DNA of 62,143 nucleotides, the filler included, from Asterionella formosa (taxonomy: Eukaryota): the NCBI GenBank assembly GCA_002256025.1. It is 29 parts of 29 records of this genome, joined end to end, with 100 filler letters (N's around TTAATTAATTAA, not from the genome) between each part and the next. Parts side by side here need not be neighbours in the genome. Positions count along the whole stretch, not along the records: positions 27,954 to 30,000 come from NKIB01000547.1; 28 more parts are not named here. One strand, given 5' to 3'. The notes beneath the pieces are model-generated. The model worked only from the letters and a program-made list of their open reading frames with translations, did not search any database and was not told the origin of the DNA. This document shows, in pieces, positions 1 through 60,700 of the stretch (position 1 is the stretch's first letter; every line of letters starts with the position of its first letter). A program made the translations under genes and the position numbers.

Positions 1-1660
1 GAAAAACAAATGATTGATAGCCTGCCTGACACAGAGCACGACACATTTCATTCTTCCCAAGGTTCAACCCTGCCCTGCCAAAAACAGTTTGATTGTCCGT
101 AGGAAAAGAACAAGGTTCACAGAGTAAGTTCATGACTTGACCACTGTTCCAATTCCAAACGGAACAAGAAAGAGGAAGAACGAAATGGAGGTAGAGGAAC
201 TACAACAACAATCAAACATAGTTCAGAGCACAAGTCGAAGAACACGATGGTGCAGAGCAACAAGAGGAAGAACAACAACAATCTAACACATGACCTGTCT
301 CCATTTTCCAAAATATTAACTGCTTACCATATATTTCTCGAACTTTCAGATGCATCCTTTCTGTACTACTGACAAGGAATAACAAAATAATTGCCTGTCT
401 GTTTCTTCCAGACCCGGCCCGCAACAGAGTCCTTGTTGCTTTTCTGGAAGTGAAGAACATGATTCACAGAGTAAGATCATAGTAGCTGTTTAAACTCACA
501 CAAGACCTTTTTCTATTTCTTAACAAACAATGCATATTCAGTTCAAACGGAGGGCAAAGAACAATCAAGAGAAGGGTATACAGCCACAGTAACCACGATG
601 AACCACCAGCCAGCTCCTTGTTTCCAACAATAAGATCCAAAGGGATAACATCAGAAACAACAGATAGCGACAACGTCAATGACAACGACAACAATAAAAA
701 CAACCACAATGCATAATGCATTTTACCACGAAAGTGATAATTTGTTCCTTCACCACGTTCTAGCCAGTAGCTGTTTTCCATTAAAATAAACCTGGCGCGG
801 ACGCTCCTCCTCCTATACCTTTGCTTTGTACTAGCCATGTGTACATTCTACATAACAAAAAGCTGGCGCGCAGTTTATGCTTTGTCAGTATACTTTTTGG
901 CGAGCAATGCAGACCTCACGAAAATCTGACGAACTTGGTGAATCGTCACGATTTTCAACGTTGTGATTTGCAAAAGGTTAGTACCAGTAATGCCGCTAGA
1001 TTGCACTACATAGGATGTCTGAATTAATTCAACTATTTTTCCCACCTTTTCGGAGCATCTATAAGCAAAACTACCGCTACAATGAAGACTCCAACAGGGA
1101 AAATATCTAGCTGTAGCAAATCTATCGAATATGCGAGTTTTTTTACACAGAAATAGCTGTTGCATGTATTCGCGTTCATCTGATGATCATGTCATTGTAG
1201 TCGGCCTGAGTAGAAAATAAGAGCTGCAACCAAAGCTATTTCTTTTCGGAAAGGCTACAATTTGTCTACAATGATTATTTTATCAAATGAAATTCGGTTA
1301 ACAAATCAAATCAAAAGAAACGTTGGTAGATATGTTTTATATATACTGGCACCCGTAGCTAGTTCCATAGAAAAAGGAGTCGCATACCGGTACTATATTA
1401 GTGTTCATCGAATATCGTTGTAGTCAGCCGAAAATGAGAGGTATTTCCGAGATACTTCAAATAGTAAACAGTCATATCTCTAGCAAGTGGCTGGCCTTAG
1501 TGAAAGTAGCATTGGATGTATAGCTGTGCTAAATCGAATCGAATGAGATAATTTATTTTGCGGTTTTACAAATGATGGATCCAATATCTATATCGGCCGT
1601 TGTCTCTTTCTATTAAACAAATATCGGTACATAATCGCTATTTAATCGTGTTTTATCACC

Positions 1661-5482: not shown

Positions 5483-6460
5483 ATTGGTTAGGCCAAGAAC
5501 AACGAAGGAAATCATTTTGGATCAACAAATTGTTTCCTTTCTCTTGATTGCAGTGATGAAACGAAATTTATTCAGCTGTAAGAAGTGCGAAGAAATTAGA
5601 ATTCTTATTACTATCAAAATCAATTTCCCTTTTCATTGCAGCTACCACCAGTAGCTAGTTTGAATCATAGTAACATGGTGTTGCAAGTATTTTCTCTGCA
5701 TCCCCTGGCACATGGATTTGTCGTGATGTTGTGCACTTTGGTGTTCTTTATATCGTGGATTCCCAAATCCTTTCACATATCCTATCCCCGTAGTAGTCGT
5801 CTAGTCTATGTACAAAGTACGGAGTATAATTAATTGTCCTCTTGCTATGAAATATACTACATACTACATACGGTACCTGGTAGTATATCTTGAGCGTCCG
5901 TCCATCATGGTTGCAGGAGGAGATTGGGATGGAGCACATGCTGCGCGTAGATTCGCCATTAGGGATTCGGGCTAACCGTTTGATTCATTGGTTCACCACA
6001 CAATCTGGAGAAAGCACCGGGTACCGGTATTTTTGTACTGGGAGGGGGAAACTGGGTAAATGCAAAACATGCCACCTGCTGCAACTGCAACTGTTCCAGA
6101 CTTCTTGTTCTTCCACCGCCGCACCTGATGTATTGTATTTTTCATCCAGGCAGATTGGAGATTGTGGCATTTCAAATGTACGGGTGCGGGTAGTAATTTT
6201 ATATGTATCATAGGTATTACGTATCTTTGTACCTGGTACCTGGCACAGTACGTAGGCTAAACCATCCGCCTGCGGTAACAAGATCAGTTGTCCCGAAGGC
6301 GAAGATCTTCGTGTCGAACTTGCTTTAGCAAAAGTCACAAACGTTTATATTTTGCTCGTCNNNNNNNNNNNNNNNNNNNNNNNNNNNNNNNNNNNNNNNN
6401 NNNNTTAATTAATTAANNNNNNNNNNNNNNNNNNNNNNNNNNNNNNNNNNNNNNNNNNNN

Positions 6461-12915: not shown

Positions 12916-14083
12916 CTCAATGCAATTAATGATTGTGGCACTGCTGTTGACTTCATTTGTGGTGGCTTCACATCAAAACTTCAAGTTTGGACATTGGAGT
13001 GAACAAGCCCTTTAAGGGTTTTGTTACTAGGGATGATGCCTAGTATGAGGACTGGATGGTCACCCATCCTCATGGTATGAAGGTGAAGCAACAGGATATC
13101 GCTCAGTGGGTTTGGACAGATTGGGAGAGGGTTTCACAATCGACAATTTTGAACACTTGGAATGCGCTTGGTTACAGTTCAAGTGATGGGTGACTCGATT
13201 TTATTCAAAAAGTTTAACATGTGACTAGAAATATAACTTTATTTTCTGCTGTTAAAGCATGATTTGTAGAAACAATTCAATAGTATCAATGTTCAATAGC
13301 TAAAATCGAAATTTATGATTCCATTTTTGTGTTGAAGCTAGTAGTAGGACTACAAATGATGTGAATCATTATGCATGCTTAAGGAAATGATTCTAGAGTC
13401 TATTTACTGTTCTACAATGTTATATATAATATATAGTATAGAATGCATTTCTATCATATCATTATTGGCTGAGGACTGCTACAACAAATGAACACCTGGC
13501 CTTGAATATCCTCCATCAAGCGAAATGAAGCCATTCTGGCATTACTCTTGCTCTTCTTTCTCATCATAGAATTTTCATTTTCATCACACATTTCTAGAAC
13601 AACCTGTGCAAACTTGCTTGTTGATGTAGAGGCAGTTGTTTTTCTGCCCAGAAACCCAGCAGTACAAAGTTCCATGCCATCCTTGATGAGGACAGCTTTG
13701 GTTGTCTCCAATGGCTTGCCCAATTCATCCTCCACAGCAGCTAGCTTGAACCTTATCACATCATCAGCCTGAACTGCCTTCCCAGCCAAAGCATTCATGT
13801 TACTCACCACACCATGAGGACCCATTGTTGGAAGCATTCAGTCAAAGCAACTCCCCATCCTGGTGGCCATTGATTGTTGTTGATCTTGTTGTTGACATGA
13901 TTAAGAAATAGAATGCATTGGTAGTACCATTAATACTGGCAGTTTATATTGGTAGCATCATTCAATTTCCGCAAAAATCAGAATTATAGCATGTTACTTT
14001 GTCTGTGTCTAGACAATTATTTGAGGGTTTTGTGCCACCCAGAAAAAAATGTGCAGGGGTCCAGGACAATGAAGGATACGGTA
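12916..14083 (+). mobile_element. Right half of a pogo-like (Tc1/mariner superfamily) DNA transposon: transposase 3' end, convergent accessory ORF, right TIR and TA
   Basis: AINDCGTAVDFICGGFTSKLQV-LDIGVNKPFK...DIAQWVW-W---S--TILNTW (DDE_1 C-terminus, frameshift and stop, ends 13193). TIR GGGGTCCAGGACAATGAAGGATACGG at 14056-14081 is followed by TA. Confidence 0.85.
13454..13870 (-). pseudogene. Small accessory gene inside the pogo element, HIRAN-like by inference, frameshifted at its 5' end
   Basis: DGELL*LNASNNG...HEC-GKAVQADDVIRFKL...KAVLIKDGMELCTAGFLGR...KFAQVVLE...MASFRLMEDIQ. The KAV...GFL-R pattern recalls HIRAN (AIxV...xGYxPR). Confidence 0.5.
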
Positions 14084-15379
14084 GAAGATGTAATGAATAT
14101 AAATGTATGTACGTCAGAAATAGTCAGTTGGGGAATGGGAGAAAGTCATACATACAGGAGCCGTGTACAATCCATGGTACCTGTAATATTTCTTTGTGTA
14201 ACGCGCTGGCAAATCACGGGGTGCTTGCCCTTTTCTGCCAGATGGCAAGTAGTTAGCGAATTCTTTAGTGTTCCAATACCACTTTTTGATTAAGCCTCCC
14301 TTTAAACTGGTAGAATATGATTGGATGAGTACCGGTTCATGCAAAAGGATGCATGTTTTAGTCGTACAAAGGTTCTCTTTTCGACCCGAATCGGTATTAG
14401 AGTTCTTCTATTTAGGCCAAACGACTCCCGAGCTTGTTGTGGTTGTTGTTTTCGATTGAACATGTGGATATGCATGTACCTCGTGTCCTCCAAAGCTTCC
14501 GTTAAGGAGAATGGACGGGATGGTATTTAAAACTTTTCGGGAGCTCGATAAAAATTTTGATACCAATTGTCCAACCGGAACTTGGCGCTGATGAGTGAGT
14601 TGGTGAGTCAATAGGTGACGAGTCAGAATTTTACTGAAATGACCCCATCCAGCAATGCCTGCATTGAGTTAACATTTTTCTTTCTCTTTTTTTCGTCAGC
14701 AATTGTGCCACGTATAACTGCTATATAGTCGGAGAAATTAATTTGTAAAGATTTCATTCGTCAGAAAAAACATCGTTTGACGGAGTAATTTATTATTGAG
14801 CTTGATTAAAAGAGGCGGCTATATTGTCTTAAAATTATCAGCTCCTTTCTTATTCGCATTCCCAATCGTCCCTCCATTGCGTCCTCCATGATTGCTTCAG
14901 AAGCCACTGTCCCTATCCTAGGCACTCAAACAAAAATGCACCAAACTCCTGTCAAGACCTTATCCNNNNNNNNNNNNNNNNNNNNNNNNNNNNNNNNNNN
15001 NNNNNNNNNTTAATTAATTAANNNNNNNNNNNNNNNNNNNNNNNNNNNNNNNNNNNNNNNNNNNNCTCTATCCCAGGGGTGTATCAGATATCTGGAAACA
15101 GAAAAATGCTAGATACCACAAGGTATTTGATCTATTCCTTTTTTCAATCTGCATGCACCACGTGGTATGAGCAATTTGATCTTGACTATCCAAACTGTCG
15201 CAATAGTATTTAGAAACGATAACAAATGAAGCTTGCCGTACATTTCTAATTCAGCAAATCGCAATAGTTTAGAGGATTCTAGATTACCTGGTATCAGTAG
15301 ACTGGGGTGCAAATATAGTGTTTACTATGGAATATGTACTGTTGGTATAATGTACCCGCGAAACTACTGTTATATATTC

Positions 15380-15816: not shown

Positions 15817-16900
15817 AATGGGAACACACGTTTCATAGGTGACATAAAATACCCGTGTACCGGCAGTATACATATTGAGTACCGGTAAGTCTCTACGTTA
15901 AGAGTTTAGAGTAAGAATCATTATATATACCGGTAGACTAACTAGTCTTTGTAGATGGGCCTCACATCACGTTTTTCAACATGATCCAAAAGAACGTGAA
16001 ATAGAGCGCAAAAGAACGCAGAAAACTTTTGCGGTCTTCTAAGGTATTGTCGTTCGAAGTGAAAATACCATTTATATATGATATCTTGCTCTGTGTTGGT
16101 ATCGATGTTCATCTTGCCCCTGGATGTTTAATGCCATTTTGGAGCTCAAACTCGCTTTGACGAAATGACCATCACGCGTACTTTTCAAGAAGGACGCGAA
16201 CTACGCCAAAGAACGCGAACTTCACAGAAGTTCTCGATCTTCGCAGTAGAACGCGCGACTAGAATTTCGAATGATGTATCGATAATGAACAACGAGGTCT
16301 GTACACGATACACATAAAGGAATTTTTCACATATGAATAGCGAGGAAGTACGGAGTTCCTGTACCTTCCCGGGATGTTCGTTTTGTTTCTTTGCTTTCTT
16401 GATAAAAATACTTTTTTGGTGCTCCATCAACTTCGGGTTTTACGGTACCAGGTACCAGGTACCTGCTACCAGTTATCATGTGAATCGCTCTCAGTATTAG
16501 GTCTGGCTTACACGTACTGTATCAATATGTGTTTTGAAAATTTATGGCTTTAAATAACCAGGTAACTTGGTATATATATATGATATAGCGAAACTATGCT
16601 ATATACTCTAAGTCATGTGTTCTCGTACTACTGGATCATGCATATGCATAGAGAGAGATATTTTTATATACCGGTATTCTAGCATCCCGGTTTGATAAGC
16701 ATGTTTATGTAGCAGGAGTACCGGTACACATGCATGCATGTTATAAAATCTATGTTCGCCGAAAATCGAGTTGTTCCAACTGCCAAAAAGATCGCTACGT
16801 CGGTTCATCAAGGATACCGGTAAGTAAATGGACAAAATCATGTGCTCACAAAATCATTTGAATCACGACCGATAAATTGATCCTTGTTTCTCCTAAAGAA

Positions 16901-17425: not shown

Positions 17426-18149
17426 TATTTAGATGGCTTGATTTATTCCGTTTCTTATTTCTAATGCAATCGAAATGTACCGGTAGTTTGACTAGTTTGA
17501 CTTGTTGGTGTTCCTCTTCGAAACGACCCCAAGCAATAAATATGCGAGGGGTTTCTTACCAGAGCCAGGGTGTAATTGGTATTGTTCATTTTTATTCGTA
17601 AGCATTCTTTATGTACGCACGACAACGAAAAAAAGGTACATTGGATGGTCCGGTACGGTAGTCGAGAGTTTTAGCTGAGCTTTTTCGCAAGTAAAAATAT
17701 TGTTTTGTCGGCTGACCTTCCTGGTACGGAGCAGCTAGGAAGATCCAGTCGCGAACATTTTATGCGCACTTTCCAGTTTCGACCCGATCTCAATGATTCA
17801 TCTTATGTCTGCCAGACGAGATAGGTCAGCTTTCGTTGGAAAAAATATTCCTTACGTAGTTTAGGAAGACGTTACTCATATTGACTGATAACAATTTTTA
17901 GAATCAGTCTCTGAAAATTACTGGGATTTGCTGACTGATGAACTTGTTGGTCAGCAAACCGTCTTCTAGCATCAGAATACAAATAGGAATCATGACTTGA
18001 ATTTGCTGACTACGACTAGAACTTGTGGATATGAATAGATTTTCTGAATGACCCTTATGCCTATGAATCATTTACATGAACAGACACAATGGGCCAATGT
18101 CAAAGCTACAGCACATGGATATTATGGCACGGAAATATTTGGAGCAACA

Positions 18150-21512: not shown

Positions 21513-22663
21513 CTCAATGCAATTAATGATTGTGGCACTGCTGTTGACTTCATTTGTGGTGGCTTCACATCAAAACTTCAAGTTTGGACATTGGAGTGAA
21601 CAAGCCCTTTAAGGGTTTTGTTACTAGGGATGATGCCTATTATGAGGACTGGATGGTCACCCATCCTCATGGTATGAAGGTGAAGCAACAGGATATCGCT
21701 CAGTGGGTCTGGACAGCTTGGGAGAGGGTTTCACAATCGACAATTTTGAACACTTGGAATGCGGTTGGTTACAGTTCAAGTGATGGGTGACTCTATTTTA
21801 TTCAAAAAGTGTAACATGTGGCTAGAAATATAACTTTATTTTCTGCTGTTAAAGCATGATTTGTAGAAACAATTCCATAGCATCAATGTTCAACAGCTAA
21901 AATCGAAATTTATGATTCCATTTTTGTGTTGAAGCTAGTAGTAGGACTTCAAATGATGTGAATCATTATGCATGCTTAAGGAAATGATTCTAAAGTCTAT
22001 TTACTGTTCTACAATGTTATATATAATATATAGTATAGAATGCATTTCTGTCAAATAATTATTGGCTGAGGACTGCTACAACAAATGTACTCCTGGCCTT
22101 GAATATCCTCCATCAAGTGAAATGAAGCCATTCTGGCATTTCTCTTGCTCTTCTTTCTCATCATAGAATTTTCATTTTCATCACACATTTCTAGAACAAC
22201 CTGTGCAAACTTATTGATGTAGCTAGAGGCAGTTGTTTTTCTGCCCAGAAACCCAGCAGTGCAAAGTTCCATGCCATCCTTGATGAGGACAGCTTTGATT
22301 TTGTCTCCAATGGCTTGCCCAATTCATCCTCCACAGCAGCTAGCTTGAACCTTATCACATCATCAGCCTGAACTGCCTTCCCAGCCTTCCAACCATGAGG
22401 ACCCATTGTTGGAAGCATTCAGTCAAAGCAACTCCCCATCCTGGTGGCCATTGATTGTTGTTGATCTTGTTGTTGACATGATTAAGAAATAGAATGCATT
22501 GGTAGTACCATTAATACTGGCAGTTTATATTGGTGGCATCATTCAATTTCCGCAAAAATCAGAATTATAGCATGTTACTTTGTCTGTCTCTAGACAATTA
22601 TTTGAGGGTTTTGTGCCACCCCAAAAAAATGTGCAGGGGTCCAGGACAATGAAGGATACGGTA
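21513..22663 (+). mobile_element. Second copy or haplotype of the pogo-like right half (transposase 3' end to 21790, accessory ORF ~22051-22450 on minus strand, TIR 22636-22661 plus TA)
   Basis: The whole contig 21513-23559 is colinear with 12916-14965, including the flank beyond the TIR, so this is an allelic or segmentally duplicated locus. Confidence 0.85.
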
Positions 22664-24220
22664 GAAGATGTAATGAATATAAATGTATGTACGTCAGAAA
22701 TCGTCAGTGGGGGAATGGTTGAAAGTCATACATACAGGAGCGGTGTACAATCCATGGTACCTGGTACCTGTAGTTAGTTTCGTGATTTCTAAAACAGCAA
22801 TATTTCTTTGTGTAACGCGCTGGCAAATCACGGGGTGCTTTGCCCTTTTCTGCCAGATGGCAAGTAGTTAGCGAATTCTTTAGTGTTCCAATACCACTTT
22901 TTGATTAAGCCTCCCTTTAAACTGGTAGAATATGATTGGATGAGTGCCGGTTCATGCAAAAGGATGCATGTTTTAGTCGTACAAAGGTTTTCTTTCGACC
23001 CGAATCGGTATTAGAGTTCTTCTATTTAGGCCAAACGACTCCCGAGCTTGTTGTGGTTGTTGTTTTCGATTGAACATGTGGATATGCATGTACCTCGTGT
23101 CCTCCAAAGCTACCGTTAAGGAGAATGGAAGGGATGGTATTTAAAACTTTTCTGGAGCTCGAAACAAATTTTGATACCAATTGTCCAACCGGAACTTGGC
23201 GCTGATGAGTGAGCTGGTGAGTCAATAGGTGACGAGTCAGAATTTTACTGAAATGACCCCATCCAGCAATGCCTGCATTGAGTTTATATTTTTCTTTCTC
23301 CTTTTTTCGTCAGCAATTGTGCCACGTATAACTGCTATATAGTCGGAGTATAATATTTGTAAAGAATTTCATTCGTCAGAAAAAACATCTTTAGCTTGAT
23401 TAAAAGAGGCGGCTATATTGTCTTAAAATTACCAGCTCCTTTCTTATTCGCATTCCCAATCGTCCCTCCATTGCGTCCTCCATGATTGCTTCAGAAGCCA
23501 CTGTCCCTATCCTAGGCACTCAAACAAAAATGCACCAAACTCCTGTCAAGACCTTATCCNNNNNNNNNNNNNNNNNNNNNNNNNNNNNNNNNNNNNNNNN
23601 NNNTTAATTAATTAANNNNNNNNNNNNNNNNNNNNNNNNNNNNNNNNNNNNNNNNNNNNGGTCCATTTGGTAGCTACCTCAGTGGATTGTAAGTGCACAT
23701 GATGGCTACACCAACCATTTTCTGATGATTGGGTTCAAAATACCACTTGCTACTACTTTTGTAATCCTTAGTGAAAAGGGATCGTTATTTTTCTGTGAAT
23801 GTTGATATGATGCTGCTCAAGTCTTTTCTTCATAAACTTTACTGATATTAGTTGAATGGCAATGATGTGTGATCGTAGATACCATATGAGCATGAGAAAA
23901 AGTAGCATATCGAAATGCATAGGCAATTTCAAGCTTTCGATGTCAATTTGTTCCGCGATCGAAGTCTCATGCTATTCTCACGCTAACAAAACGCAAGTGA
24001 ACCCTGCCAGTTAAAGATTATTTTGACGTTTAATAGAACAAATTCTACAGGTCAGTTCTACTACTGCAGCATCTCAGATTATATTGAATTACTGGTATGC
24101 TAAAATATGCATGTACATAAAGTATGATACGAAACAAACCCCTGATGTTCGTTACATGCTAAAACATGTAGAGAGGATCTGTCTCATTCATCGGGTCATT
24201 TGAAAAGAATTTCTAAACTG

Positions 24221-25358: not shown

Positions 25359-25841
25359 GATACGCAGGAGCAACGAGAAAAAGCAAAAGAAGGAATAGAT
25401 AAGTCAATAATAACTTTACTCTATTGTTGCTGTAGCGGAGTGATGAAAATAAGGGCAGGGCGCACAAAGTCGAGTATGTGATGGATGGGGATTTCGGCCG
25501 AAAAGAGCATGCGCGCTGGCGGTAAAATAGATTAACCATCAAAACTTAAGATATTAACGTACAAGATATTACGTACAAATGTACAAAAGGCACCATGTAC
25601 AGCACCATACAATATGTAAACTATGTTCCATACAAAGCGTAAGGGCCTATCTTATCAGAGATTCAAATTACTTTTTGTTGTATATTCAGAAAAAAATGAA
25701 TCTTTANNNNNNNNNNNNNNNNNNNNNNNNNNNNNNNNNNNNNNNNNNNNTTAATTAATTAANNNNNNNNNNNNNNNNNNNNNNNNNNNNNNNNNNNNNN
25801 NNNNNNAAGAAATTTACTTAGGTCCATTATAAGGGAAATCT

Positions 25842-25933
25842 CTTCATTGTCCTGGGCCCCCCTTAAGTAAAATCAGTCAAATTCAGTCACGGCAGTGTAC
25901 ATTGGGGGGTCCAGGACAATGAAGTATACGGTA
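25842..25933. repeat. pogo-family TIR (25904-25931, followed by TA) with an internal inverted copy (25842-25862)
   Basis: GGGGGGTCCAGGACAATGAAGTATACGG|TA matches the TIR at 14056-14081; CTTCATTGTCCTGGGCCCCCC is its near reverse complement. Confidence 0.8.
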
Positions 25934-28537
25934 TATGTATATGGCTGGGTGCAATTTCTGGGGCCACGAGGTAAACCCCATTGGCCAAGTATAAGCAAAA
26001 CCCCTGACCCTATGTATATAATATTTTGCGCCTAAAAACCCTTCTTGTTAAAATCACATTGACCATGTTGGTATTATTCTGTTGGTTTATGTTAAAGTAT
26101 TACCTTTTTGATAGATCTATATCGTTAGACAAAGAAGACTATAGATAGTGACGTTCGTTTCTCTTTCCATTTCTATATTCTTATTGTGAGTTTACAAATC
26201 TAGTTTAGGTTGTTCTGTTTGAACAAACAAACAAACTATTCTCCAAATGCTGTTTGCATTTCTAGAAACATACAATCATAGATAGACCCATATCTATCTC
26301 ACACTTACTGATCATAGGTTTTTAAACATGATCATTCATTTTCAAACTATCGGTCTTCCGAAATAGCTTATTTTGTCTGGCTCATTATAGGCGGAGTAAC
26401 AACATAAAATGTGTGGTTGATGAGAGTTTGGTACATCAAATTTGACTCATTCGAATCGTTCGACTCGTTTGACTCAGAGTCATAACTACGTAGATAAGCT
26501 CACTTTAACAGGTTTGCACAACAATTTTACAACCTCCTGTGCCCCTTGATTTATCAACATAATCACCATGATCAGTGCTATCAGTTAAGGCATCAAGCGG
26601 CACCGGAGCACAAAATTTCGTTTCTATATAGGACCTATTTAGTGTTTAGCATGTCAAATCCATGCCTACATGACCAACCAATTCATGAGCAAATACTCTT
26701 GAGCTTGACAGTGGTGGACAGTCTGGAATTGAAAATGTACAGGGATGCATCAAATATGGTCCTATAGCAGATAGAATGAGGCTATTATAACAACGATTTC
26801 CCAACCATTACTGTGCAATGGACTTCAATTTCAAGTTCATCATGACTGAACTCAACCATGACAACAGCGAGATTGGATGATAAAAAAATAGTTAAATACA
26901 TACATAAAATTTCTTCATATTTATGTTATTTATGTACAAAATTTTACTTACATTAAAATTATGTTCCACTCCTGATAGCTACGGTGGCTAGTACCCAATG
27001 TAGTTTCAGGATGATGCACCCAAGAACCATGGGGTTATCTGTAGAGGTGCTTCTTGCTGAAGGCGATTCCCGCTCCAACTATTGTCTTGACATTCCGTTA
27101 CTTTTAAAGCAAATTTTTTTTATGGGCAATATGGGGCACATCGAAGTTTTTGGCATGAAAATTGCCGATTTTAGCATGACAGCCAAAATAACGGTAATAG
27201 TAGAAATGGCAAAACAAGCGTAAAAAATACAAGAATGATTGTAACATGCAACATCAATGAAAATTGAACATGATGTTTGGAGCAACCAAAGTATAAAATG
27301 CGATGTAATAAATAGCGTCCAAAATGAGAAACAGAAAATATTTTTGGGTTATTTTATTTGTAGCACTTACACAGGCATTATTTACTTTCCATCACACAAT
27401 CGAAGAGCGAAACAAAACAGACGAGAAAAAAAGCTGAACCCAATTGAGATCTGCATCATTATGGGCTGTAGCATAGATGATCCGGTTGCTGCAACAACCA
27501 TGAAAATCGCTGTAGTAGCCTGACACAAGTTGCAGTCCTCCTGCCCACAGTCATTCCTCCCACCAAACAACCCTCATAATTCCATTCCAATTTATTCTGA
27601 TTAAGTAGGATCTCCAGGCTGCTCAAGCACTATTGACTCCCTCTAGCTGAAAAAAAGCACAATGGTACTGGAAGATCTCACTGCCAAGAACCAACAACAC
27701 AAGGCATAATGATAATCACATCTACGATTTCATGAAGAAATACATTGTTAGCATAATACTACTTCTTTACATTGTAGCTTCAATGGCGATTTGATTGTTT
27801 GATTGATTGTCGACTAGAAATAGTTCAGCTTTACTTGTGAATACTATGACATANNNNNNNNNNNNNNNNNNNNNNNNNNNNNNNNNNNNNNNNNNNNTTA
27901 ATTAATTAANNNNNNNNNNNNNNNNNNNNNNNNNNNNNNNNNNNNNNNNNNNNGTATCCTCTTGCTTCACTTACCACAAATCAATGCAACTGATGCATAA
28001 GTCTGTAATAGTAACTTGTCAGTAAATTCTTGAATAAGTAAGTTTCGGGTATCCAATGTTGTTGAATAAAACTTACCGGTACATTTTTGTCATCTTAGCT
28101 AACTTTGAGAGAAGGTAAACGTTTTGTCAGCTTTGTTCCAACAGAAGTAAATAGGTCCAACGAGCGACAAGAGCACTTACGCAATTTGGTTTTGTTTTAC
28201 GTTGGTGCTCCCCAACAAGCGAAACGAGCTGTTGAATCAACTGAGAAAAAAGGAAATGTGCCTGCGTTTAGTTAACAATTTGTTGTTGTCCTGCCTCCCA
28301 ACGATTGTCATCCAAGTAGCTACCACATTGATGGCTTCATTACCTTAAACATTCTCCATCCTTCGAATGCGCAATGTGTCGAAGTCACAATGTTTTTTGT
28401 TATGTATTGTGAAAATTTTCTTTTCTCTTAATGTGCTTTACTACGACGTATCTTTTCATGAAGCAGCAGGCATTGTTTGTTAACATGACAGAACGATTTC
28501 AAAAATATATATGCCATGAATATAGAAATAAAATTTG

Positions 28538-28540
<3 letters not shown>

Positions 28541-28570
<30 letters not shown>
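28541..28570. repeat. (AT)15 microsatellite
   Basis: Visible directly. Confidence 0.95.
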
Positions 28571-28573
<3 letters not shown>

Positions 28574-28937
28574 CTAAGTGTTATACATTTATAAAATTCA
28601 AACGCGCTCTCGATATGGAACATCTGATATGGTTGAGATGATCATACTCGCATATACATAATTCGAAAATACTCAATGCACTACATGTCCATTGTTTTCC
28701 ACGACTACGTGTACCGGAATTGTTTCTGAAATTTGTTTGCATCGATATTTTCTACGTCCGTTGAAACTAATCATTTAGACCGTTAAATAGCCGCCAGGGT
28801 TTTGGTAGCAAATTGTTTAAGCCCCTTTTTTGGTCGGGAGCTCTTCATGTGTACCGGTACATCATACCGGTATGACAATAACAATATATCATATATATAT
28901 ACAGAGTACCAGTAGCAGGTAGTAAGTGATATACTGG

Positions 28938-29362
28938 GGGTAGTCGGAGTAGTAAACTAGCAACAGAACACCATATGTTCAGGACTGTTGCTACTGCAGT
29001 GGGACAGTAAATCATCATATTTTTAGGATCGTATGATCGTAAAAAACACCATATTTTTATGACTGTTGTAATTACATTGGGACAGTAAATTATCATAGTT
29101 TTAGGATCGTATGATCGTAAAACTAAAAACAAATAGAATACCATATGTTCATGACTGTTGCAATTACAGTGGGACAGTAAATCATCATAGTTTTAGGATT
29201 GTATGATCGTGAAACTGAAAAGCGGTACCGGTAGTTGGAGTAATAAGCAAGCAATAGAACACCATAGTACTAAATCATCATAGTTTTAGGATTGTATAAA
29301 TAGAACACCATATACATATGTCTATGACTGCTGCTACTACAGCGGGGCAGTACCGGTAAATG
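28938..29362. repeat. Degenerate tandem repeat, ~80-95 bp units (AACACCATATGTTCAGGACTGTTG...GGGACAGTAAATCATCATAGTTTTAGGATCGTATGATCGT)
   Basis: Three near-complete units plus partial ones are visible. Confidence 0.85.
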
Positions 29363-29369
29363 AATTTAA

Positions 29370-29741
29370 GATCATCGAACTTTAAGGAAGACAACGACAA
29401 CAGCTGGTCGTGTTGCTGGTCCACTTTTAATGGCCGAAGAAGGAAGCGACGAAAAGATCACCATTACGAGCGGAACGAGAGAAATCGCTTACGACGCCAA
29501 GTCTGGACGATTCTTTGAGAATAACTTGCAGGAAGAAGAATGCATTCCTGACGAGGAATACTGTGTCGTCGATCCGGAAAGTGGGGAACTCATTCGTCTC
29601 ACAGTAGCCGAAAAGGAGCGTATCTTTCTGGACGCGCTTCAGTCCTACTATGCCACTGGAAGGCAAATGCTCAAGGATGATGAGTTTGACCTATTGAAGG
29701 AAGATTTGCAATGGAACGGATCTGAGCATATATATAGCTAA
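29370..29741 (+). pseudogene. PGRL1: PGRL1 (PGR5-like 1) N-terminal fragment, truncated before the transmembrane domain
   Basis: EYCVVD...LTVAEKERIFLDALQSYY-TGRQMLKDDEFDLLKEDLQWNGS matches the PGRL1 pattern EFLQALQSFYY-GK---SNEEFDNLKEELMWEGS. Similarity stops at ~29725 with no GT donor; only part of the transit peptide is present. Confidence 0.75.
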
Positions 29742-30179
29742 AACAAGGAAAGACGACACGACAATTAACGTGATGACTGGTTGTTGAGGATACCGGTATG
29801 TGATATGCATCAATCCATATCACAAATCATATTATAGTGATGTACATATCAACACATCCGTATACTTAGATCATATCCACTGTATAATACTATCATATTA
29901 ACTGTTGACTTTAACTGTATATATTAAACGACAAACATATATATTAATTAACATACTTTATGATTGCTTGATTTATATTCTGTGATGTATCGATAACACT
30001 NNNNNNNNNNNNNNNNNNNNNNNNNNNNNNNNNNNNNNNNNNNNTTAATTAATTAANNNNNNNNNNNNNNNNNNNNNNNNNNNNNNNNNNNNNNNNNNNN
30101 GCTTCTGCTATATTCTACCGGTAGTTCGATTCTATTCTATTCATTGAACTCTAGTCGCATTGAATTCCTGGTAACAAGC

Positions 30180-35229: not shown

Positions 35230-36445
35230 CTGCTCTTTGTAACTTACAAATACTGTTTGTCTACCATTATTATCCTGAAAGAAGCAACTCATATGTGTCA
35301 GTTTTTCTAACAGTTGTAGATTGATCCAAAGATGGCTGATAGGCAGCACTTACCGATTTCTTTTGTCCACAACCATTTATGGTTGGCCACCAGTCACCAA
35401 ATCGAAAAGGAGCTATTGAATCACTGAAAGGGGACGAGTCATTCCGTATTTGTAATCCCAGCAATTGATCATCCTGGATATGCTCTTGACATGCTGTGAT
35501 GCTATGCACAGCTTGTTGATTCCGCCCTTCTCCGCCCATCATATTCACTCCTTCTTAGCCGCATGGTGTATTGTCACTTCAGTTTTTCGTTGCTTGAGAT
35601 CCTTCATTTCAGGAAGTGGATGCAGCATGACAAGGAACACGAAAGGCATTCGCTCTTGACTTCTTAGTACCATCAATTGATTCCGCCCTTCTCTTCTAAG
35701 CCGCAAGTATCGCTCATTGTGCTTTATTATCACTTTCGTTTTCCGCGTCATCATCTGTGTTAATCCTTCAATTCAGGAGCAAAGTGTATGCATGACAAGG
35801 AACATGAAAACATGATTTCAAATGTTTCAGCCATGAATACATATATATAAAGATTTATGAGAAGTTTGAATGTATATAAAGTTGAACATTTGCATAGTTT
35901 GAAACACCCTCATGATATGGCACATCCTGTGTATACTTTCATCAATTTTGATTATACATAATTCAAATATATACAATGCATGATGAGTTCATAGTTTTCC
36001 ACAACCTGTTGAGTATTTTCAATTTTTGTTGTGTCAATTCTTGTACCTACAAGTCATTGGCTGATTTAATTAAGCCCCTTAATAAACGGGAGTCATCACC
36101 AATTTTTCAAATGGTCGAAATCATACATTTATGTATATTGACATATTGACCAAAATTCATATGGCCTACCGGTAGTCCTGTATAATTGCTGGTAATTACT
36201 TCCATCATGGAAATACCACAATAGTGCAGCGGAAAACTGAATATGCTCATGTGTTTAGGATCATTTGATCATATTTTTAAGATCAATTGATCCTGATTCT
36301 TGAAAATAAATGTTGATTGTTCATTTTCTCATCAACGACACCGTTCATCATATGATCAATATGTTATGATCAAAGTTATAGGATAAACGAATCTAAATTC
36401 ATTGATTAAAGATCATAGTTTATACCGGAGTAGTTGCTCATGCAT
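35230..36445. repeat. Inverted homologue of 33505-34285
   Basis: Direct reverse-complement similarity; the ORF track shows the same peptide QDDQLLGLQIRNDSSPFSDSIAPFRF in both. Confidence 0.75.
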
Positions 36446-36774: not shown

Positions 36775-38394
36775 GGTCAGTGACCGACGATGATGAATAT
36801 ATAGAACTCATGCATATAATGAACAAGAGGCGGCATAGCATACAAGAGGATGCATCGATATGAAAATTTAACTGTTGAAAATTAAAGTTAAAAATATATA
36901 TAATGTCAGAGAAGTAATCTAAAATATCTCTATTATCAGAGCGCAAGGACGATATTATGTAGCAGATCACCAGAATAATTTGTGTTAAAATACACACATG
37001 ATTTAATTATTTTTTATTATCAGAGCGCTCCCACTAATGTGTGATAATTATACCCGTACCTTCATACATATTCTCCAACAATGGATATGTATGTACCATC
37101 ATATGTAGATAACCGCTCAAAATTTACTTTTACACGCATACATTTTGAACCATGTACTTCAACATGCAGTTTCGATTCGTTCTGCTGGGGAACAATCCAA
37201 TAGCACTATAGATTTCAAACCCCCTAATACTAGACCTTTGTTGTCATTATTCAATTTCTTCAAAGGGTACTTCACCATGTCTTTTGTTAGCCACGTTATT
37301 GTGTCAACTTTGTCTGCTACTAATAATTTAGCTAGCAATAGCAAAACTTGGTAAAACAACTCCTCCACCGTTAGCCTTTCTAGCGTCTACTTCTCTGACA
37401 TTGTTGTTTAGAACAAGCTTTACTAAATCCTTATCTAGAGACTTACAAATCACTCTGTGCTTGCTCGAGGTTTGGTACTTCTTCGGTTCATTATACTAAG
37501 TCGTAAGATCCGGAGAAATGAAAATGTGGTATATTGTGATGGTCTCAAGAGCATTTCAGGATGCATCTATGTTGACAGTACAAAATCACTAAATTGCTAT
37601 GGTGCGAACTAGTGTGCATGTTTACATTGGGATGTCGCACACAATCGCGCCGTAATCCACCTCAAGAAAAGCGTTAAAGGAAGCTATTATAAGTTGGAGT
37701 ATTAAAACTTACGTAATATCGTATATGAATATATAATGTTGGCCCAGCTAAACGAGGTAATTTTATTTTCTTCCAATGTGCCTCACTCAACATTTTCGAA
37801 GTCGTTTATCTCACCAAATGGAGCACAACATCGATCAGGCGTTAAGACATCCTATATGTAGATGCGTGAAGCAAATGACTTGTTCATAGTAAATATTGTC
37901 GTATTGCTAAAATTGAAAAAGTTTGTAGTACAAAATGTAAGATTACCCCGTTATAGTGGTCTAAGGCAATTTTTGACTGGTACCGGTACTCATTATTCTT
38001 TAAAATTAGATTTTGATAATAATTAAATTTATTGGCCAGCGCGAAACCGTTAGAATTTTCTTAATGTCTAAGTAATATTACTGGGGAGTCGAATATGAGT
38101 GCTTGCCGGCGCCGCGAAATGACCGCAACTTGCTGGTACCAGGTACCTGGTACCGTACATAGGAATGTGTCCCAGCAGCATACGTACGTAGTGTCGTAGT
38201 GTCATCATCCAACCTGCCTTTTTATAGTGCGATCAATTTTGATTGATCCAATACATTCCATCTGTTGCGGACGACATTTACTACATGATGACAACAGCAA
38301 TTATGAAGATGGACGACACAAATCAGTGCTTTTAATCAGAATCCGGCACAACATCTTATGAGATATACCATCAGTTGAAGCACTGTAATAAGAA

Positions 38395-40735: not shown

Positions 40736-43199
40736 NNNNNNNNNNNNNNNNNNNNNNNNNNNNNNNNNNNNNNNNNNNNTTAATTAATTAANNNNNNNNN
40801 NNNNNNNNNNNNNNNNNNNNNNNNNNNNNNNNNNNAGAACCATCGTCTGATCATGGGCGGTAATGGATACTACCAGGTACCAGGTACACAGCCTGGTACT
40901 GCTAAGCATCACTAAATTCCTGCCGGCAGCCGGTTTGTAAACCAGTAGTACCTGGTAGTAAAGTGCTGCTGAAGGCAATACACGCCCGCGGTGGTCTCTT
41001 GCCTGCGAGTACACATGTATACTACGAGAAGGCAAGTAGCCGCCGAGAAGGGTATTGTTGAGGCAATTCCCGCTCTAGCTATCGTAGCGTCATTCGCTTA
41101 CCTACTGCCCACAAATTTAGCATAAATGTCAATTTTAGCATACTATTGCCCATCATATAAAATATATTTCGTATATTTCCTATCTTCACCTCGAAAATTG
41201 CCAAAGGTCCGATATTGCCCATCCTTAAAATACATTTTGTATATTTCCTATCTTCGTATTTTGGCATTACAATTTGCAGCAGTTGCCCCTCGGTTTTCCA
41301 GCCCTGGGATTGCCGAAATCGGCAATGGGTCTACTTAAAGAAACCATTTTATATACTATTCAGGTTTTCATAATTTATATCTGCTAGAATTCACCTCGTT
41401 TTTGTTCGTCTCCTGAAAAGTGGATTCCGGCAATTCACCTTTCACCATGCCGATTGTCGTCCATCATGACCGGTTTGAAGCGAAATCAGTTCTGTGATGA
41501 CGCCAGTAGCGATTCGTTGTCTAACGGATGTGGTTGGTTGTTGGATTGCTTGTCTTCTCGATTGATTCATATAGTCGCATCGTCCATATTTCGTCGGACA
41601 AACGATGAAATCGATACATTTGATGTTGGTGGCAAGTTTTTGCTCCGGTCATGCATGTGATGATGCTTAACGGATATTCTACCGGTACCAGTAGTCATCT
41701 AGCCTACATATGTACGTGGTACTAAAAACAACCATGCATGGTTTAAGCTAAACTTTAACGCTTACTTTGAACACGTTATAATATTATCTCTGTAGACTCG
41801 GCATTGTTTTTAGGAGACCAGAATGGTAAATTACCGGTATATCGTTCACATTTTCATTGATTTTACGTACAGTATGCCCGATTTCGTCCTCAATTATACT
41901 TCTCACTCTATCTTGCCTGCCTTTGCTCTATTCGGGCTTTCAATAGGCATCGTTCGTCTTTCTTTGATCCCATCATCTGCTGCTTGTTATGCTAGTTGAA
42001 GCGGATCGGTGAGTACAACAGTGAAATACTGAATGTGGATTGTAGATCGCATTTATCGATTTTCAGATTTGATTGCTTCCGTGGTTTGATTTGATCGCTT
42101 CCATCGTTGTTTATCGTTATGCACTGTCGTTTTGTTTCGATTGTACATATCTACATGCATAAGAACCAATGCACTTATCAATGACTACTCATTGAAGATG
42201 TGGTATTGTGCCGTTGTTGATCGTATTTGTTGATTTGTATAGTTGTTGACAATGATGTCAATATTGACGCCAAGCAATGCTTTTCTTGCTTGTACTAACG
42301 CGCTTTGCTACATTTCTACTACGAGTTCGTATCAGAAGCTACATGAATACTCAGCTAGAGAGAGTCAATAGTGCTGGAGCAGCGTGGCAATCACGCTTGC
42401 TCCTCAGAATGGAATGATCAGGGTTGCTTGTTTGGTGGGCGGAGAGGAATGACTATGGCGGAAATACTGCTACTGGTGTCAGGCTACTACAGTGATGCGC
42501 ATGGTTGCAGCAACCAGACCATTTACGCTACATAACGATGTAGGTCTACATTGGGTTCAGCTTTTTTTTCTTCTTTCGGTCTTCGACTGCATCTAAGCCG
42601 TGAAATACGCCACTTTTCGAAATTTCGTTGACGTAGGAGTGTGAATGTTGGGGTACTTGACATGAATTAATGCCACTCTTCCCATAAAAAAGGTTACTTT
42701 TAACGGTTTCATGTGAAGTTTTCACAATGAACTTTGAACTCAAGACTGAATTAGTTGATGTTTCAAATAATTCATTTCAAAGTTCAACTAATATCCCGCT
42801 CTTGTGGCTAATTCATTTACTACACTCATCTTTATTTGTGAAATAGTAAGGATATTTGTGGTGTCTTATTTCATGCATNNNNNNNNNNNNNNNNNNNNNN
42901 NNNNNNNNNNNNNNNNNNNNNNTTAATTAATTAANNNNNNNNNNNNNNNNNNNNNNNNNNNNNNNNNNNNNNNNNNNNTGAATGATGTGATTCCATTTGA
43001 AATATTTGAATCACTAGAAATTTGCGCATACATACATAGATTCTTTTTCGAATTCAATAAATAAATACATAAACATTCTCCATTGCTCAATGTTTATATA
43101 CCCTATCATACAATCAACATATATTTGTCAGACAAGTTGGCAGCATGGCAAATATTTTTGATGACTACCGGTAAGAAACAAAAAAAGCAACAATCAACC

Positions 43200-45120: not shown

Positions 45121-45495
45121 ATAGTACTTTTAAAATACGTAAAAAAATTTAATAAATTACGTGAACCATATTATAGAATTACGTGAACAAAAATTTAAGG
45201 CAATGTGAACTGAATTACAGAATTAATTGAAGTATTTCAAATAATTACGTGAAGTATTTCAAATAATTATGTGAAGTATTTCAAATAATTATGTGAAGGT
45301 GATCACGTAATATAGTGATGATCAGGAATGCATGCATGATACTCTGATCAAATAAATAACGTGATGTATTCAGATAATATATAGATATATTCAAGTAAGC
45401 ATTTTGATGTATTCAACTAATTCATGTGATCCATTCAAAATCAACTAGGCTTATTTACGTGATGGTCACTTCACGTAATACGCGGCTTAGATGTG
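45121..45495 (-). repeat. Terminus of a CAC-starting (CMC/CACTA-like) DNA element with 22-bp subterminal tandem repeats
   Basis: Reverse complement begins CACATCTAAGCCGCGTATTACGTG; contains GAAGTATTTCAAATAATTAYGT repeats and many ACGTGA motifs. Confidence 0.7.
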
Positions 45496-45990
45496 AGACC
45501 AAAGATCAGGGCATATAGTTATCAGTTATCCATGGAACATTCCTCATTTAATTTATGTCGGAGCCTCTACCGGTACTTGTAATCCCTTCTATGTCGGAAA
45601 CCATCACTGAGAATGATCAAGCCAGTCTTACCAAACATACCGGTATGCACTTTGATGCTTAGGAATCAGGGAAAGATCGCTCTGGCTCACAACATAGAAA
45701 CAAACTGAAAACTTGGTGGAATATGAACATGAACCTACATGTCGATTTGTACGAAACCTTTTGATGGTCGTGTACTTGCAACAAAAAATAGCGAGACCTA
45801 CACCGACACCGAGAACGAGAACGAGACTGGCCAAGGCCAATGCCAATGGGTCTTGCAACGCACAACCAGGTGAAAAGACAAATATTTGTTGCTCCATCTC
45901 CACACTTTTCTTGGACTCTCACATGCCTCCTTCACGGCAATCCTTCAAACAATTCAATCAATCCCCTTGCTCTACTGTGACTGTGCACAA

Positions 45991-46053
45991 ATTCACATTC
46001 ACATTCACATTCACATTCACATTCACATTCACATTCACATTTACATTTACATT
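45991..46053. repeat. (ATTCAC)n hexanucleotide microsatellite, ~10 units
   Basis: Visible directly. Confidence 0.95.
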
Positions 46054-46811
46054 ACTTAGGCAAGGAACATTTCATTGCATTGCATTGTCTCACTGATTGA
46101 TTCGTTACCGACAAAAACACAAATGTCGACAGTTTTGACAATTTTGACAATTTTTCGCACAAACCAACAACTATCCTAGAAATGTTTGTTCAAGTACCGG
46201 TATAGATTTTCTGCAAACCAAACAACGCCCTACTGGTACTACCGGTACCAGCAAATATGCAGGAGGAGCTTCCATTTTAATGTCGTGGTGTTTCGCGTTC
46301 GCGAAATATAGTCGAGACTGAGACTGATAGTGAGACTGATCCATGGCGAAAGTTATCAGCTGGACCTTCTCAAAGGAATCTAGCCAAAGGAAAGATTCTG
46401 TAATGCCAAATGAAAAAGCAAAAATTGCAGGGAATAGGCGAACCCAAAGAAACTACCGGTATGAGCAACAAGAGGAGTTACACTACCGTTATGCGTAATG
46501 CGTAATGCGTTATGCAGTTGCCGCCAAGAATGTCTCCGATTCTTTCCTCGAGCATGGAAAGACTGCGGCCAAAAGCCAAAACTCAATCAAGATGAGCCCG
46601 CAAATGCAAATGTCCTCGTTGCTGAAATTTGCTTTGTATCTCAACGATTCATTCAAGAATTCAATATGACTGAAAACAGAACATGCAAGCAAGAAACAGG
46701 GTAGCTATTCGGAGATATCAATGGCTTTTGTTTGAAACCATTGTATTCATAGGAGGGGTTGTATGTTGTTTGAATTAAAATTACCGTTACATCAAGGGGA
46801 TCAGCTACTAC

Positions 46812-47382: not shown

Positions 47383-48463
47383 TGGAAGTTGAGGATCATT
47401 GCAGTAGAAGGATTGTTCTTTTATGAAACAAAAAAAATACTGCTTAATATTTAAGTCGGACGACATGGAAGCCCTCAACGCATGTCGGGTGTGCTATTCC
47501 CCAGCCATGCTGACGATCTGGATAGAATTTTTCATATTCGTCAACGGTTGCTTGTTCCGGTCTTCCCTGCCAGCTTGTTTTCACTTGGTTACTAAAAAAA
47601 CTCTCTCAATTTTTTGACTTTTTTCAGTGAATTCGGCGTTGCATAAAATCTACGCTGACGAGGCTTGTGCTTACACTTATATAATGCATATTTAACGCAG
47701 CATGTAGCGATATTTTTGTATGTGGTTCAAATTCATGCTATCCCTAACACCTTTGCCTCAAATTTCGACTGCTGATGGTAATTGTGGATTTGTATATGGT
47801 TCGCACCTGCAAGGATTTCGATAATTTAACCGCAAATTTAATGTCTGTAAACAATACTTTTCCTTTCTAACAAGTCTACCGGTAATACTTATGCTGTAGG
47901 TCATTACCTAGCCACCTTGAGCAACGGCGGTTATCTTTGATTCATGGTGTAAAGCAGGAATTTTTAAATATATTGACACATTCATGGCTTACCGGTACTC
48001 GTGCTTGTTCTCGTGCTCGTATTCGTATCACTTTGAGAGAAAAAGTGAAAAGTACGGTACCAATGTACTTAGGCCGTTGATATCGGTACCGGTAGGCCAA
48101 AACGCAAACCAAACAGTGTTTTGGTTTCGGTAACCCTAAAAAACAATGGTATCGGGAGGCAGTGGAAAACCCAACGCAAAAGCATTACGTTTAGGGGATT
48201 CCGTACCCATATCCCAATAGATACCCAAATGCATTACATTTAGGTTTTTTTTTCCAAAGTTACCAAAACGTATCCATCACATCTTTGCGTTTCTGGGATG
48301 TCCTGGCTGGTAATTTACACAAGAATTTAAGATTCTTTTCCATTGGGCCTCCATTAAAAACCTGTGGACTTCCGAAACAATGAATGTTTCTTACAGTATG
48401 CATCTGTTGATGAAACTTCGCAAGCTTCCATCCCTGAGAGGTTGTTGTTCTCGGGCATTCTTT

Positions 48464-51010: not shown

Positions 51011-51272
51011 ATCATGGGCATGATTCAAATTCAAATCAATTGTACACGTAGTACGTTTACATACAAATATCTCTGCAACATACCGGTATATAGGTGTCAC
51101 TATGATGGACATGATTTGAATTCAAATCAATTGTATGCATACTGGTACGTACGTTTACATGCAAAAATATGTGTGCTACATATATACCGGTAGGTATCCC
51201 GATGATGGGCATGATTAAAATTAAAATCAATCATGTACATACGATTACATACAAAAATATCTGTGCAACATA
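51011..51272. repeat. Tandem repeat, 3 units of ~90-100 bp (ATGGGCATGATTCAAATTCAAATCAATTGTA...TTACATACAAA.ATCT.TGCAACATA)
   Basis: Visible directly. Confidence 0.8.
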
Positions 51273-52262
51273 TTGGTGCTACCAGTACCAGGGTACCCCC
51301 CTGGTACCAGGTAGTACAATAGATGATACAATAGACAGTAGTACCTGGTACCAGTACTCACACACAAGTAGACTCGAACATGCATATTCATATATGAGTA
51401 TATCTATCATGTCTTCTAAACTATTGACCAAGACTGCTGTGTTCCNNNNNNNNNNNNNNNNNNNNNNNNNNNNNNNNNNNNNNNNNNNNTTAATTAATTA
51501 ANNNNNNNNNNNNNNNNNNNNNNNNNNNNNNNNNNNNNNNNNNNNAATCATTTGTCCAATACTAAGTAGCACAGCATCTGCCTGCAATTGACTTGCATGC
51601 AATCATTGTAGCAATTAAAACTATTTTCATTTTAGCTGTTATAGTCTATCATTTGGTGCAACCAATATGGTCAAGATGATGAATTGGTTGCCATTACTAC
51701 TACTCTTAACAACAATGCGAGAATTGAAAATGTCAACGAGAACAAGTCGAAAGTGTTTGTTTACGGGTTGATTGGCGAGATTGTCATGCTGAAGTGGACG
51801 AAACGGATATACTTTGTGCGCTGTGTGCGGAAACATTACGAGTTCGAATGGTTTCTTCTCTCCTGTAAACTCTGGATTGAATGATTATGAACAAAGGTTC
51901 ACTGCACATGACAATTACTCGAAGACATTAAGATCACTTGACCAACAAATTGAAGACGTTATCGCAAACATTCATTCCGCTTGTCATCGCTAGTATTTCG
52001 TTGTTGTTGCAAAAATCGGAGTGATGACGGATGGAAATGACGAGCCAAATTACATAACTTGAACTGGTACATTATCCTACCGAGAAATTCGAATACAGGA
52101 ATCAAATAGAAACAATACATATAATAATCAAATATATGTAGTCAAAAGGGTTACTATTTAAATTACAAAGGCATTTATCAAAATTATTAGATGGTATAAC
52201 GAAAAATTATGATCAGATGATCACAATCCTATGATGCATCATGGAAATATGATAGTTTTTAT

Positions 52263-60104: not shown

Positions 60105-60700
60105 TGCAACATACTCAGGCGACGACGTGGGAACGTAAATGGAGGGAGGATGACCATGAGCGGCAAAGGAGTGGTGGTACAGGGCATCGCCGTGAGGAGG
60201 TGGCAGCGAATCGGGGCACCACAGTGGATCTCGATTGGCGTCGGGCGAGGTAGAGCGCATTATGAGAAATTAACCGGAAGGGATCAATAACCTGTCAGAG
60301 AGAGAGAGGGAGAGACGATCACTTACAATGCATCGACAGCGATCGATTGATAGAGAAAGTGAGTTTTAGAGTGAAAGAATTAGGGATACTACTGCTAGCT
60401 ACTGGGAAAGGCCTACTTGCGTATGTTCTAGTACGGGGTAACCGGTACTGACAATCATACTGATAAAATGTATATATATTCGTTCGTAGTCTAGTCTGAT
60501 ATATTATACCGGTATGCAAAACCGTTAAATGAATAACTGCATCACTTCGCAATGAACATATATCATAAATACGAGTATAATACAAAGCAATAAGAGGTAC
60601 CGGTACTCATATAATTACGGGGTATTCAACATTCCACCTCCCCCCCCTTCCAGCCCATAATCATGCTGAAACGACGCACGACGAAAGCTTGAAAGTGTAA
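60105..60700 (-). mobile_element. Copia junction: pol 3' tip, PPT, LTR (60293-60631), PBS-like motif, gag start (ATG 60260)
   Basis: Minus strand: F---RF-MIMGW, then AAGGGGGGGGAGGTGGAA|TGTTG...TGACA|GGTTATTGATCCC, then a Pro-rich ORF. Confidence 0.65.

Follow-up and report, generated by a model that had tools for sequence, protein, structure and literature searches.

The palindrome TACCGGTA, in which CCGG stands between two TA dinucleotides, recurs at dispersed positions in small scaffolds of the diatom Asterionella formosa, and the question is how it came to be there. An earlier note on this DNA read the word as a footprint left at TA target sites by transposon excision. Our analysis supports that reading on three grounds, namely insertion at TA, polymorphism of the inserted bases, and a pogo element with termini CCG...CGG. 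We put at roughly 0.8 the probability that the TACCGGTA words are excision scars left by pogo-type cut-and-paste transposons that target TA and have these termini.

The window, by which we mean the whole stretch of DNA analyzed (62,143 bases), consists of 29 scaffolds of 2039–2056 bp each, ordered by decreasing length, and is not one locus. Scaffolds are joined by N44-TTAATTAATTAA-N44 linkers carrying a six-frame stop (e.g. 2057–2156 and 4209–4308), and long ORFs that span linkers, those of 719 aa among them, are artefacts. Because the scaffolds sample the genome independently of one another, an enrichment of TACCGGTA across them carries more weight. The set is made up of unplaced small scaffolds, may be biased to repeats and haplotigs, and perhaps does not represent the genome. 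Gene content according to Pfam included Copia-type pol fragments, a Mutator fragment, NECAP/DUF1681, Fip1, and AAA_16, as would suit a diatom-like protist with many mobile elements.

An exact count found 32 occurrences of TACCGGTA in the window, the same number and coordinates as an earlier hand count of about 32. The expectation was 0.25 by dinucleotide shuffle (shuffle maximum of 3, with 0/100 shuffles getting to 32) and 1.36 by an order-3 Markov model. These values lie on either side of the single occurrence previously estimated by chance and establish, within the window, enrichment over a Markov background. The top-ranked 8-mer was TTAATTAA, owing to the linkers; once this synthetic word was set aside, TACCGGTA was the top enriched 8-mer, and it was by far the most enriched among palindromic 8-mers. 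The enriched unit is the whole 8-mer, with T and A flanking 32 of the 41 ACCGGT words and 32 of the 98 CCGG words lying inside the motif. All 32 copies had distinct flanks with only a mild bias (A depleted at +1), and TACCGGTA therefore does not belong to a longer repeat. The figure of one scar per ~2 kb given in the earlier note stands as a mean, but a mean over unplaced small scaffolds, 15/29 of which contained TACCGGTA while 10/29 lacked scars of any type. Coordinates of the scars, chains, and element ends are given in Table 1.

Table 1 Positions of putative scars, stacked chains, and transposon ends in the window.
Feature	Position	Remarks
TACCGGTA scar	1385..1392	
Stacked scars	5869..5882	TACGGTACCTGGTA
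TACCGGTA scar	6022..6029	
3' part of two-gene pogo element	12916..14083 (+)	Transposase C-terminus 12916–13187; second ORF 13928–13496 (minus strand); TIR 14056–14081 ends ATACGG, then TA
TACCGGTA x2	15880..15935	48 bp apart
Stacked chain	16441..16461	TACGGTACCAGGTACCAGGTA
TACCGGTA x3	16669..16822	At 16669, 16719, 16815
TACCGGTA scar	17478..17485	
Second copy of same pogo end	21513..22663 (+)	Same insertion site; allele or paralogue, 93.6% identity
MITE end	25807..25933 (+)	Last 127 bp (incl. flanking TA) of 652-bp derivative; ends ATACGG, then TA
TACCGGTA scar	28074..28081	T for A at 28081 in many other-population contigs
TACCGGTA x2	28852..28872	13 bp apart; second (28865–28872) polymorphic
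Tandem array, 78–92-bp units	28930..29375 (+)	Upstream of ORF 29370–29741
TACCGGTA scar	29226..29233	Empty counterpart is TA 28941–28942, array unit 1
TACCGGTA scar	29351..29358	Plain TA in three sister units
TACCGGTA scar	29791..29798	
TACCGGTA scar	30116..30123	First ATG of Fip1-motif gene ~64 nt downstream
TACCGGTA scar	36167..36174	Paralogous copy near 33780 is TACTGGTA (CpG transition)
TACCGGTA scar	37981..37988	
Stacked chain	38137..38157	TACCAGGTACCTGGTACCGTA
Stacked chain	40871..40886	TACCAGGTACCAGGTA
TACCGGTA then deaminated form	41680..41693	TACCGGTACCAGTA
TACCGGTA scar	41832..41839	
TACCGGTA scar	43166..43173	
TACCGGTA x2	45568..45645	Within long-TIR element
TACCGGTA x3	46195..46461	At 46195, 46240, 46454
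TACCGGTA x3	47877..48094	At 47877, 47990, 48087
TACCGGTA x2	51081..51196	At 51081, 51185
Stacked scars	51342..51356	TACCTGGTACCAGTA
TACCGGTA x2	60507..60605	Upstream of AAA_16 ORF (start 60723)

Filled and empty versions of the same TA site lie side by side in the tandem array (TRF periods 78 and 92), in which TA was unscarred at 28941, 29008, 29086, and 29178 and scarred at 29226 and 29351. When the units were aligned, the GGGACAG-TA-AAT of three of them (TA at 29008, 29086, and 29178) corresponded to GGGGCAG-TA-CCGG-TA-AAT in the fifth, and GGGGG-TA-GTCGGAG (28941) corresponded to GCGG-TA-CCGG-TA-GTTGGAG (29226). The alignment thereby established the two filled and empty pairs previously picked out as genuine 6-bp insertions at TA. 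The flanks within the array hold no source from which the inserted CCGG could have been copied, and the four bases were therefore imported.

The scaffold with this array (27954–30000) occurs, partly or wholly, in 18 runs from 12 studies. For polymorphism, contigs of the runs X2, X6, X10, and X11 (four studies) were aligned to it at 90% likeness. At 28865, one contig each in X10 (depth 687/1655) and X11 (117/389) had an exact 6-letter gap, and loose ends reading catca-TA-TGACAATAA in X6 and X11 represent the empty site. At 29356, the end of one X10 contig reads GCGGGACA followed directly by GTAAATG, which is the unscarred version of 29351; the empty TA allele of that scar is thus probably carried by another freshwater population. 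In the array, at 28865, and at 29356, the inserted bases have TA on both sides and the empty site has a single TA. Polymorphism between TA and TACCGGTA, proposed earlier as a check of the scar reading, was accordingly seen at 28865 and probably at 29351, and, coming from short metagenome contigs only, it is real but thin. The remaining 4/6 scars of the scaffold showed no indel among the matches listed. As for 6-bp CCGGTA indels between paralogues, a second such check, the array unit pairs displayed them but no clean one was found across 11 aligned paralogous pairs, whose aligned regions held a single CCGG scar. Array joints and loose ends at 29129–29238 were also considered as empty sites and rejected, as they are changes in unit number. 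Within the ORF at 29370–29741 (probable coding; 29374–29575), CCGG was inserted behind 29521 in X2 (2 contigs) and an X11 contig (record 15) had 6 extra letters. Either an exon or an intron could have been scarred here.

The window also contains ends of a candidate source element. A 28-bp end, GGTCCAGGACAATGAAG(G/T)ATACGG followed by TA, was found at 14083 and 22663, in two copies of a single locus, and independently at 25933, which makes two independent loci. Scanning metagenomes with this 28-bp end yielded nine loci on eight contigs. One of these, L003, has the same TIR around an open 395-aa ORF that matched Pfam DDE_1 (PF03184, E = 3.1e-22, 79.4 bits vs a cut-off of 22) and, weakly, the N-terminal helix-turn-helix family CENP-B_N (19.7 bits, below the cut-off of 21.2). 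Besides the transposase, L003 has a convergent second ORF of 151 aa (L003:210-665). The two window copies (12916–14083 and 21513–22663) had 83% identity to L003 and kept the transposase C-terminus, the second ORF, and the TIR, with the second ORF at 13496–13928 (minus strand) sharing 71–76% identity with its L003 counterpart. The second ORF had no Pfam match. Among 94 window ORFs of at least 90 aa, Pfam returned no transposase match for the pogo remnant at E ≤0.01, and the remnant was recognized solely through comparison with L003. The pogo TIR ending in ATACGG-TA that the earlier note had pointed out is thus present at three places, with a DDE_1 parent in L003 and termini CCG...CGG. The DDE_1 domain, the TA duplication, and the short TIRs are all as in the pogo superfamily.

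Three of the metagenome loci, L002, L007, and L008, contain a complete 652-bp non-coding element, TA-CCGTATACTTC...GAAGTATACGG-TA, with TIRs of ~30 bp, termini CCG...CGG, and TA on both sides in 3/3 complete copies. Copies of this derivative (L001, L002, L007, L008, and the window) had 99.4–100% mutual identity, and the window segment at 25807–25933 was 100% identical to the L002 copy. The derivative is a very young non-coding member of the pogo family. Such near-identity, together with the open transposase ORF, indicates recent mobility, and by these signs the pogo/MITE pair looks currently active. MITEs of the Stowaway/Emigrant type are mobilized by mariner- or pogo-like transposases, and the derivative resembles them in being short, homogeneous, TA-flanked, and non-coding, with TIRs common to an autonomous partner. 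The metagenome relatives (~16 kb, with L001 and L009 omitted as duplicates of L008) contained 8 TACCGGTA and 10 TACC(A/T)GGTA. Elements directly adjoin scars in L006, as element-TA-CCGG-TA, and in L004, as element-TA-CCG-TA. L001 and L008 were tried as a polymorphism pair and rejected, since they represent a single locus (99.8% identity) and differ by no internal indel. The two scaffold copies that carry the pogo ends differ at 14182 vs 22758–22800 by a complex 34-bp stretch starting in a TACCTGGTA/TACCTGTA word, where an excision may have been accompanied by deletion or filler.

The inner bases of the CCGG scars are the termini of this resident element, which is not the case for the CC(A/T)GG scars described below. 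In the contigs and loci covered, we saw no site with the element in one genome and a scar in another; from the matching termini we infer that the CCGG scars were produced when these elements excised, and we lean toward this pogo family as their main source. In the proposed mechanism, the element would insert at TA and duplicate it. At excision, cleavage of the non-transferred strand by the transposase would fall a few bases within the element, and each flank would keep TA and a short 3' overhang of element sequence. If the overhangs were 3 nt (CCG), their terminal CGs could pair and, after 1-nt fill-in on each strand, the host would join them as TA-CCGG-TA; if they were 2 nt (CC), fill-in and a blunt join would also yield TA-CCGG-TA. 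For termini CCG...CGG the predicted product is exactly TA-CCGG-TA, and because both overhang lengths give the same scar, the stagger is unreadable from it. The earlier suggestion that CC is retained from one end and GG from the other does predict CCGG, but is indistinguishable from 3-nt CCG overhangs annealed via CG. Scars would then build up in non-coding, CpG-rich DNA near genes, where their re-use as targets would produce stacked chains, while in CpG-poor DNA the central CpG would decay to give TACTGGTA/TACCAGTA.

The same elements might have left these scars without transposase excision, by slippage or microhomology deletion between the terminal CGs or by aborted end-only integration. TACCGGTA is indeed the product expected of a deletion between the CG of each terminus, and excision is deduced here from sequence comparison. 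However, a 2-bp repeat over 648 bp is a poor slippage substrate from which a uniform product is unlikely, and the open transposase ORF and 99.4–100% identical copies speak for recent mobility. Moreover, experimental excision of Tc1/mariner and pogo elements leaves just such scars (PMC6943129, PMC9976928). We regard an origin without transposase excision as improbable.

Decay of the motif followed CpG content. The words TACTGGTA/TACCAGTA occurred 16 times in the window vs about 3.9 expected. Of the 24 one-letter neighbours of TACCGGTA, only the two CpG transitions were enriched (7 vs 2.1 and 9 vs 1.7 expected), and the 22 non-CpG neighbours were barely so (21 vs 16.9 expected). The scant enrichment of non-CpG neighbours fits either young scars or selection on the motif. 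The ratio of intact to deaminated scars was 6:11 where scaffold CpG o/e was <0.75 and 26:5 elsewhere (Fisher P = 0.0012), and the TACCGGTA at 36167 aligned with TACTGGTA in a paralogue. Judged by this pattern, TACTGGTA/TACCAGTA are CpG-deaminated scars.

Scars avoided coding DNA. None of the 32 TACCGGTA fell in likely coding regions, a set that holds 21% of window TA sites (P = 5e-4), which agrees with the earlier observation of none in intact CDSs; the same was true of all 17 TACC(A/T)GGTA. Scars per scaffold rose with CpG o/e calculated with scars excluded (Spearman 0.63, P = 2e-4), and the scars at 30116, 29351, and 29226 are ~60–200 nt upstream of a first ATG. In our reading, this location would result from elements entering and leaving gene-proximal DNA that is open and unmethylated, combined with purifying selection in exons. 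CpG depletion would here reflect methylation, the basis for which is the methylation of transposons in diatoms.

Such placement also raises the possibility that TACCGGTA is a selected palindromic cis-regulatory site for a dimeric transcription factor, enriched in promoters. Pairs of TACCGGTA 13–150 bp apart upstream of ORFs (e.g. 30116, 29351, 60598), the scarcely enriched non-CpG neighbours, and the concentration of scars on CpG-rich, gene-proximal scaffolds are all points in its favour. Promoter clustering had been named beforehand as an observation that would count against scars, and upstream clustering was indeed seen. Nevertheless, the motif originates as a 6-bp insertion that duplicates TA, its inner bases are the termini of a resident TA-targeting element, and the positional conservation of a binding site was not found, with presence or absence varying between populations, CpG decay in a paralogue and in CpG-poor scaffolds, and stacked chains that include CC(A/T)GG units. 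These features argue against a selected site and make it a very remote prospect as the origin of the motif, although some scars may have been co-opted later as regulatory sites.

The chains themselves bear on a further alternative. TACC(A/T)GGTA occurred 17 times in the window vs ~0.9 expected, and a search of the window for stacked chains yielded 8 matches with mixed CCGG, CCAGG, CCTGG, and CCG units. The flanks of TACC(A/T)GGTA had C at +1 in 79% and at +2 in 62% of 34 half-sites, a C-C bias explained by most of these scars sitting in chains. TA-flanked TIR pairs with CC(A/T)...GG ends were found neither in the window nor in the nine metagenome loci. Among the minor excision products to be expected, TACGGTA and TACCGTA together numbered 10, including 3 element junctions, and were not enriched in the window (expectation of 2.8 for TACGGTA alone), and TACCGCGGTA had 0 occurrences in the window. 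In principle, GGTACC-type microsatellites could have given rise to the words without transposons, through slippage or tandem duplication, as the strong flank bias, the predominance of chains among TACC(A/T)GGTA, and the 33 GGTACC in the window would suggest. That account is countered by the diverse flanks of the 32 TACCGGTA, by the lack of a local template for CCGG at 29351 and 28865, by the mixture of units within chains, which single-unit slippage would not generate, and by a count of 0 for GGTACCGGTACC in the window. GGTACC-like repeats may, by slippage, contribute to the CC(A/T)GG chains, but slippage cannot make CCGG at naive TA sites, and we give it hardly any credence as the origin of the words. 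An assembly or sequencing artefact, conceivable in a window of chained ~2 kb leftover scaffolds with synthetic linkers, can be dismissed, as scaffold 27954–30000 is present in runs of 12 studies, contigs of four other runs cover all 30 of its bins with 6-bp gaps only at 28865 among the matches listed, and the same words occur in metagenome contigs of other assemblies.

Excision by a pogo-type transposase agrees with what has been described for related systems. In Tc1/mariner elements, transposase cleavage of the non-transferred strand falls a few nt inside the element and leaves 3' overhangs, and end joining yields a scar consisting of the first or last 2–4 element bases between TAs (PMC6943129). 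The diatom scar shares with these footprints, including the TAC(A/T)GTA scar of Sleeping Beauty, a TA on both sides and inner bases that are element termini, but it differs from the Sleeping Beauty scar in having 4 inner bases and forming a perfect palindrome (PMC6943129). The palindrome likely results from CCG overhangs self-annealing via CG. Tc1/mariner footprints come from assays, whereas the diatom scar is a natural k-mer excess of ~1 per 2 kb, recognized in DNA sequence only. Passer, a pogo element, leaves 0–4 bp at the donor site, and it has in common with the diatom family a DDE_1 transposase of ~400 aa, duplication of the TA target, and TIRs shorter than 30 bp; it is unlike the diatom family, which has a second convergent ORF and a 652-bp non-coding derivative (PMC9976928). 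Among rice DNA-transposon excisions, 8/94 were 'perfect', with a plain duplicated target site, and most had deletions or filler, in contrast to the one stereotyped product that predominates in the diatom (PMC4423477).

We found no account of excision footprints in diatoms in the open-access literature and bioRxiv preprints searched. Among the matches listed, TACCGGTA itself appeared in the open-access literature in primers or constructs only, for example as part of a primer in PMC1978519. The mechanism is textbook, but one stereotyped scar at ~1 per 2 kb in a diatom, accompanied by its pogo/MITE source, seems unreported. Donor-site scars are usually studied assay by assay and are messy in plants; here one stereotyped scar is frequent. 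The scars would document, in natural DNA, both cut-and-paste traffic and the way in which a diatom joins 3' overhangs, and excision, besides insertion, would steadily supply the neighbourhood of diatom genes with small indels, CpGs, and palindromes. The pogo/MITE pair is a candidate genetic tool, and the scars are usable as strain markers.

The density and uniformity of the scars might additionally be due to control of donor-site repair by the pogo family itself, a joint reading with the second ORF and a ratchet of re-insertion that we consider doubtful. The product of the conserved second ORF could bind the CCG overhangs and steer them toward a single microhomology join, and each scar would add two new TA targets to promoter DNA that is open and unmethylated. 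If this were true, a self-feeding ratchet would keep supplying diatom promoters with CpG-bearing palindromes on which regulation could draw.

Several other repeats were observed in the window. A long-TIR element at 45167–47162 had arms of ~290–330 bp that were 96% complementary and contained 22-bp tandem repeats; the 1.3 kb between the arms contained five TACCGGTA scars, and a third arm copy was located at 48465–48815 on the next scaffold. Three Copia-type pol fragments (2157–4208, 6461–8512, and 8613–10664, with rve_3, SH3_retrovirus, and RVT_2) shared 99.6–99.8% identity, each with its full 683 aa open, and the scaffold ends cut all three at the same points, as if a very young retrotransposon had interrupted the assembly. 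Two pairs of scaffolds matched over their whole length, 12916–14965 vs 21513–23559 at 93.6% identity and 38691–40735 vs 55826–57865 (reverse) at 97%, the latter encoding a long ORF without a Pfam family; both pairs are probably haplotigs or recent duplicates. A Mutator-like transposase fragment was present at 44003–44563 (PF20700, E = 4e-7). Lastly, a TA-flanked MITE-like element at 53035–53196 (154 bp without the TAs) had perfect 14-bp TIRs (CCCATAGCTGTGTA...), an internal direct repeat of ~45 bp, and a telomere-like upstream flank (AACCCTAACCC).
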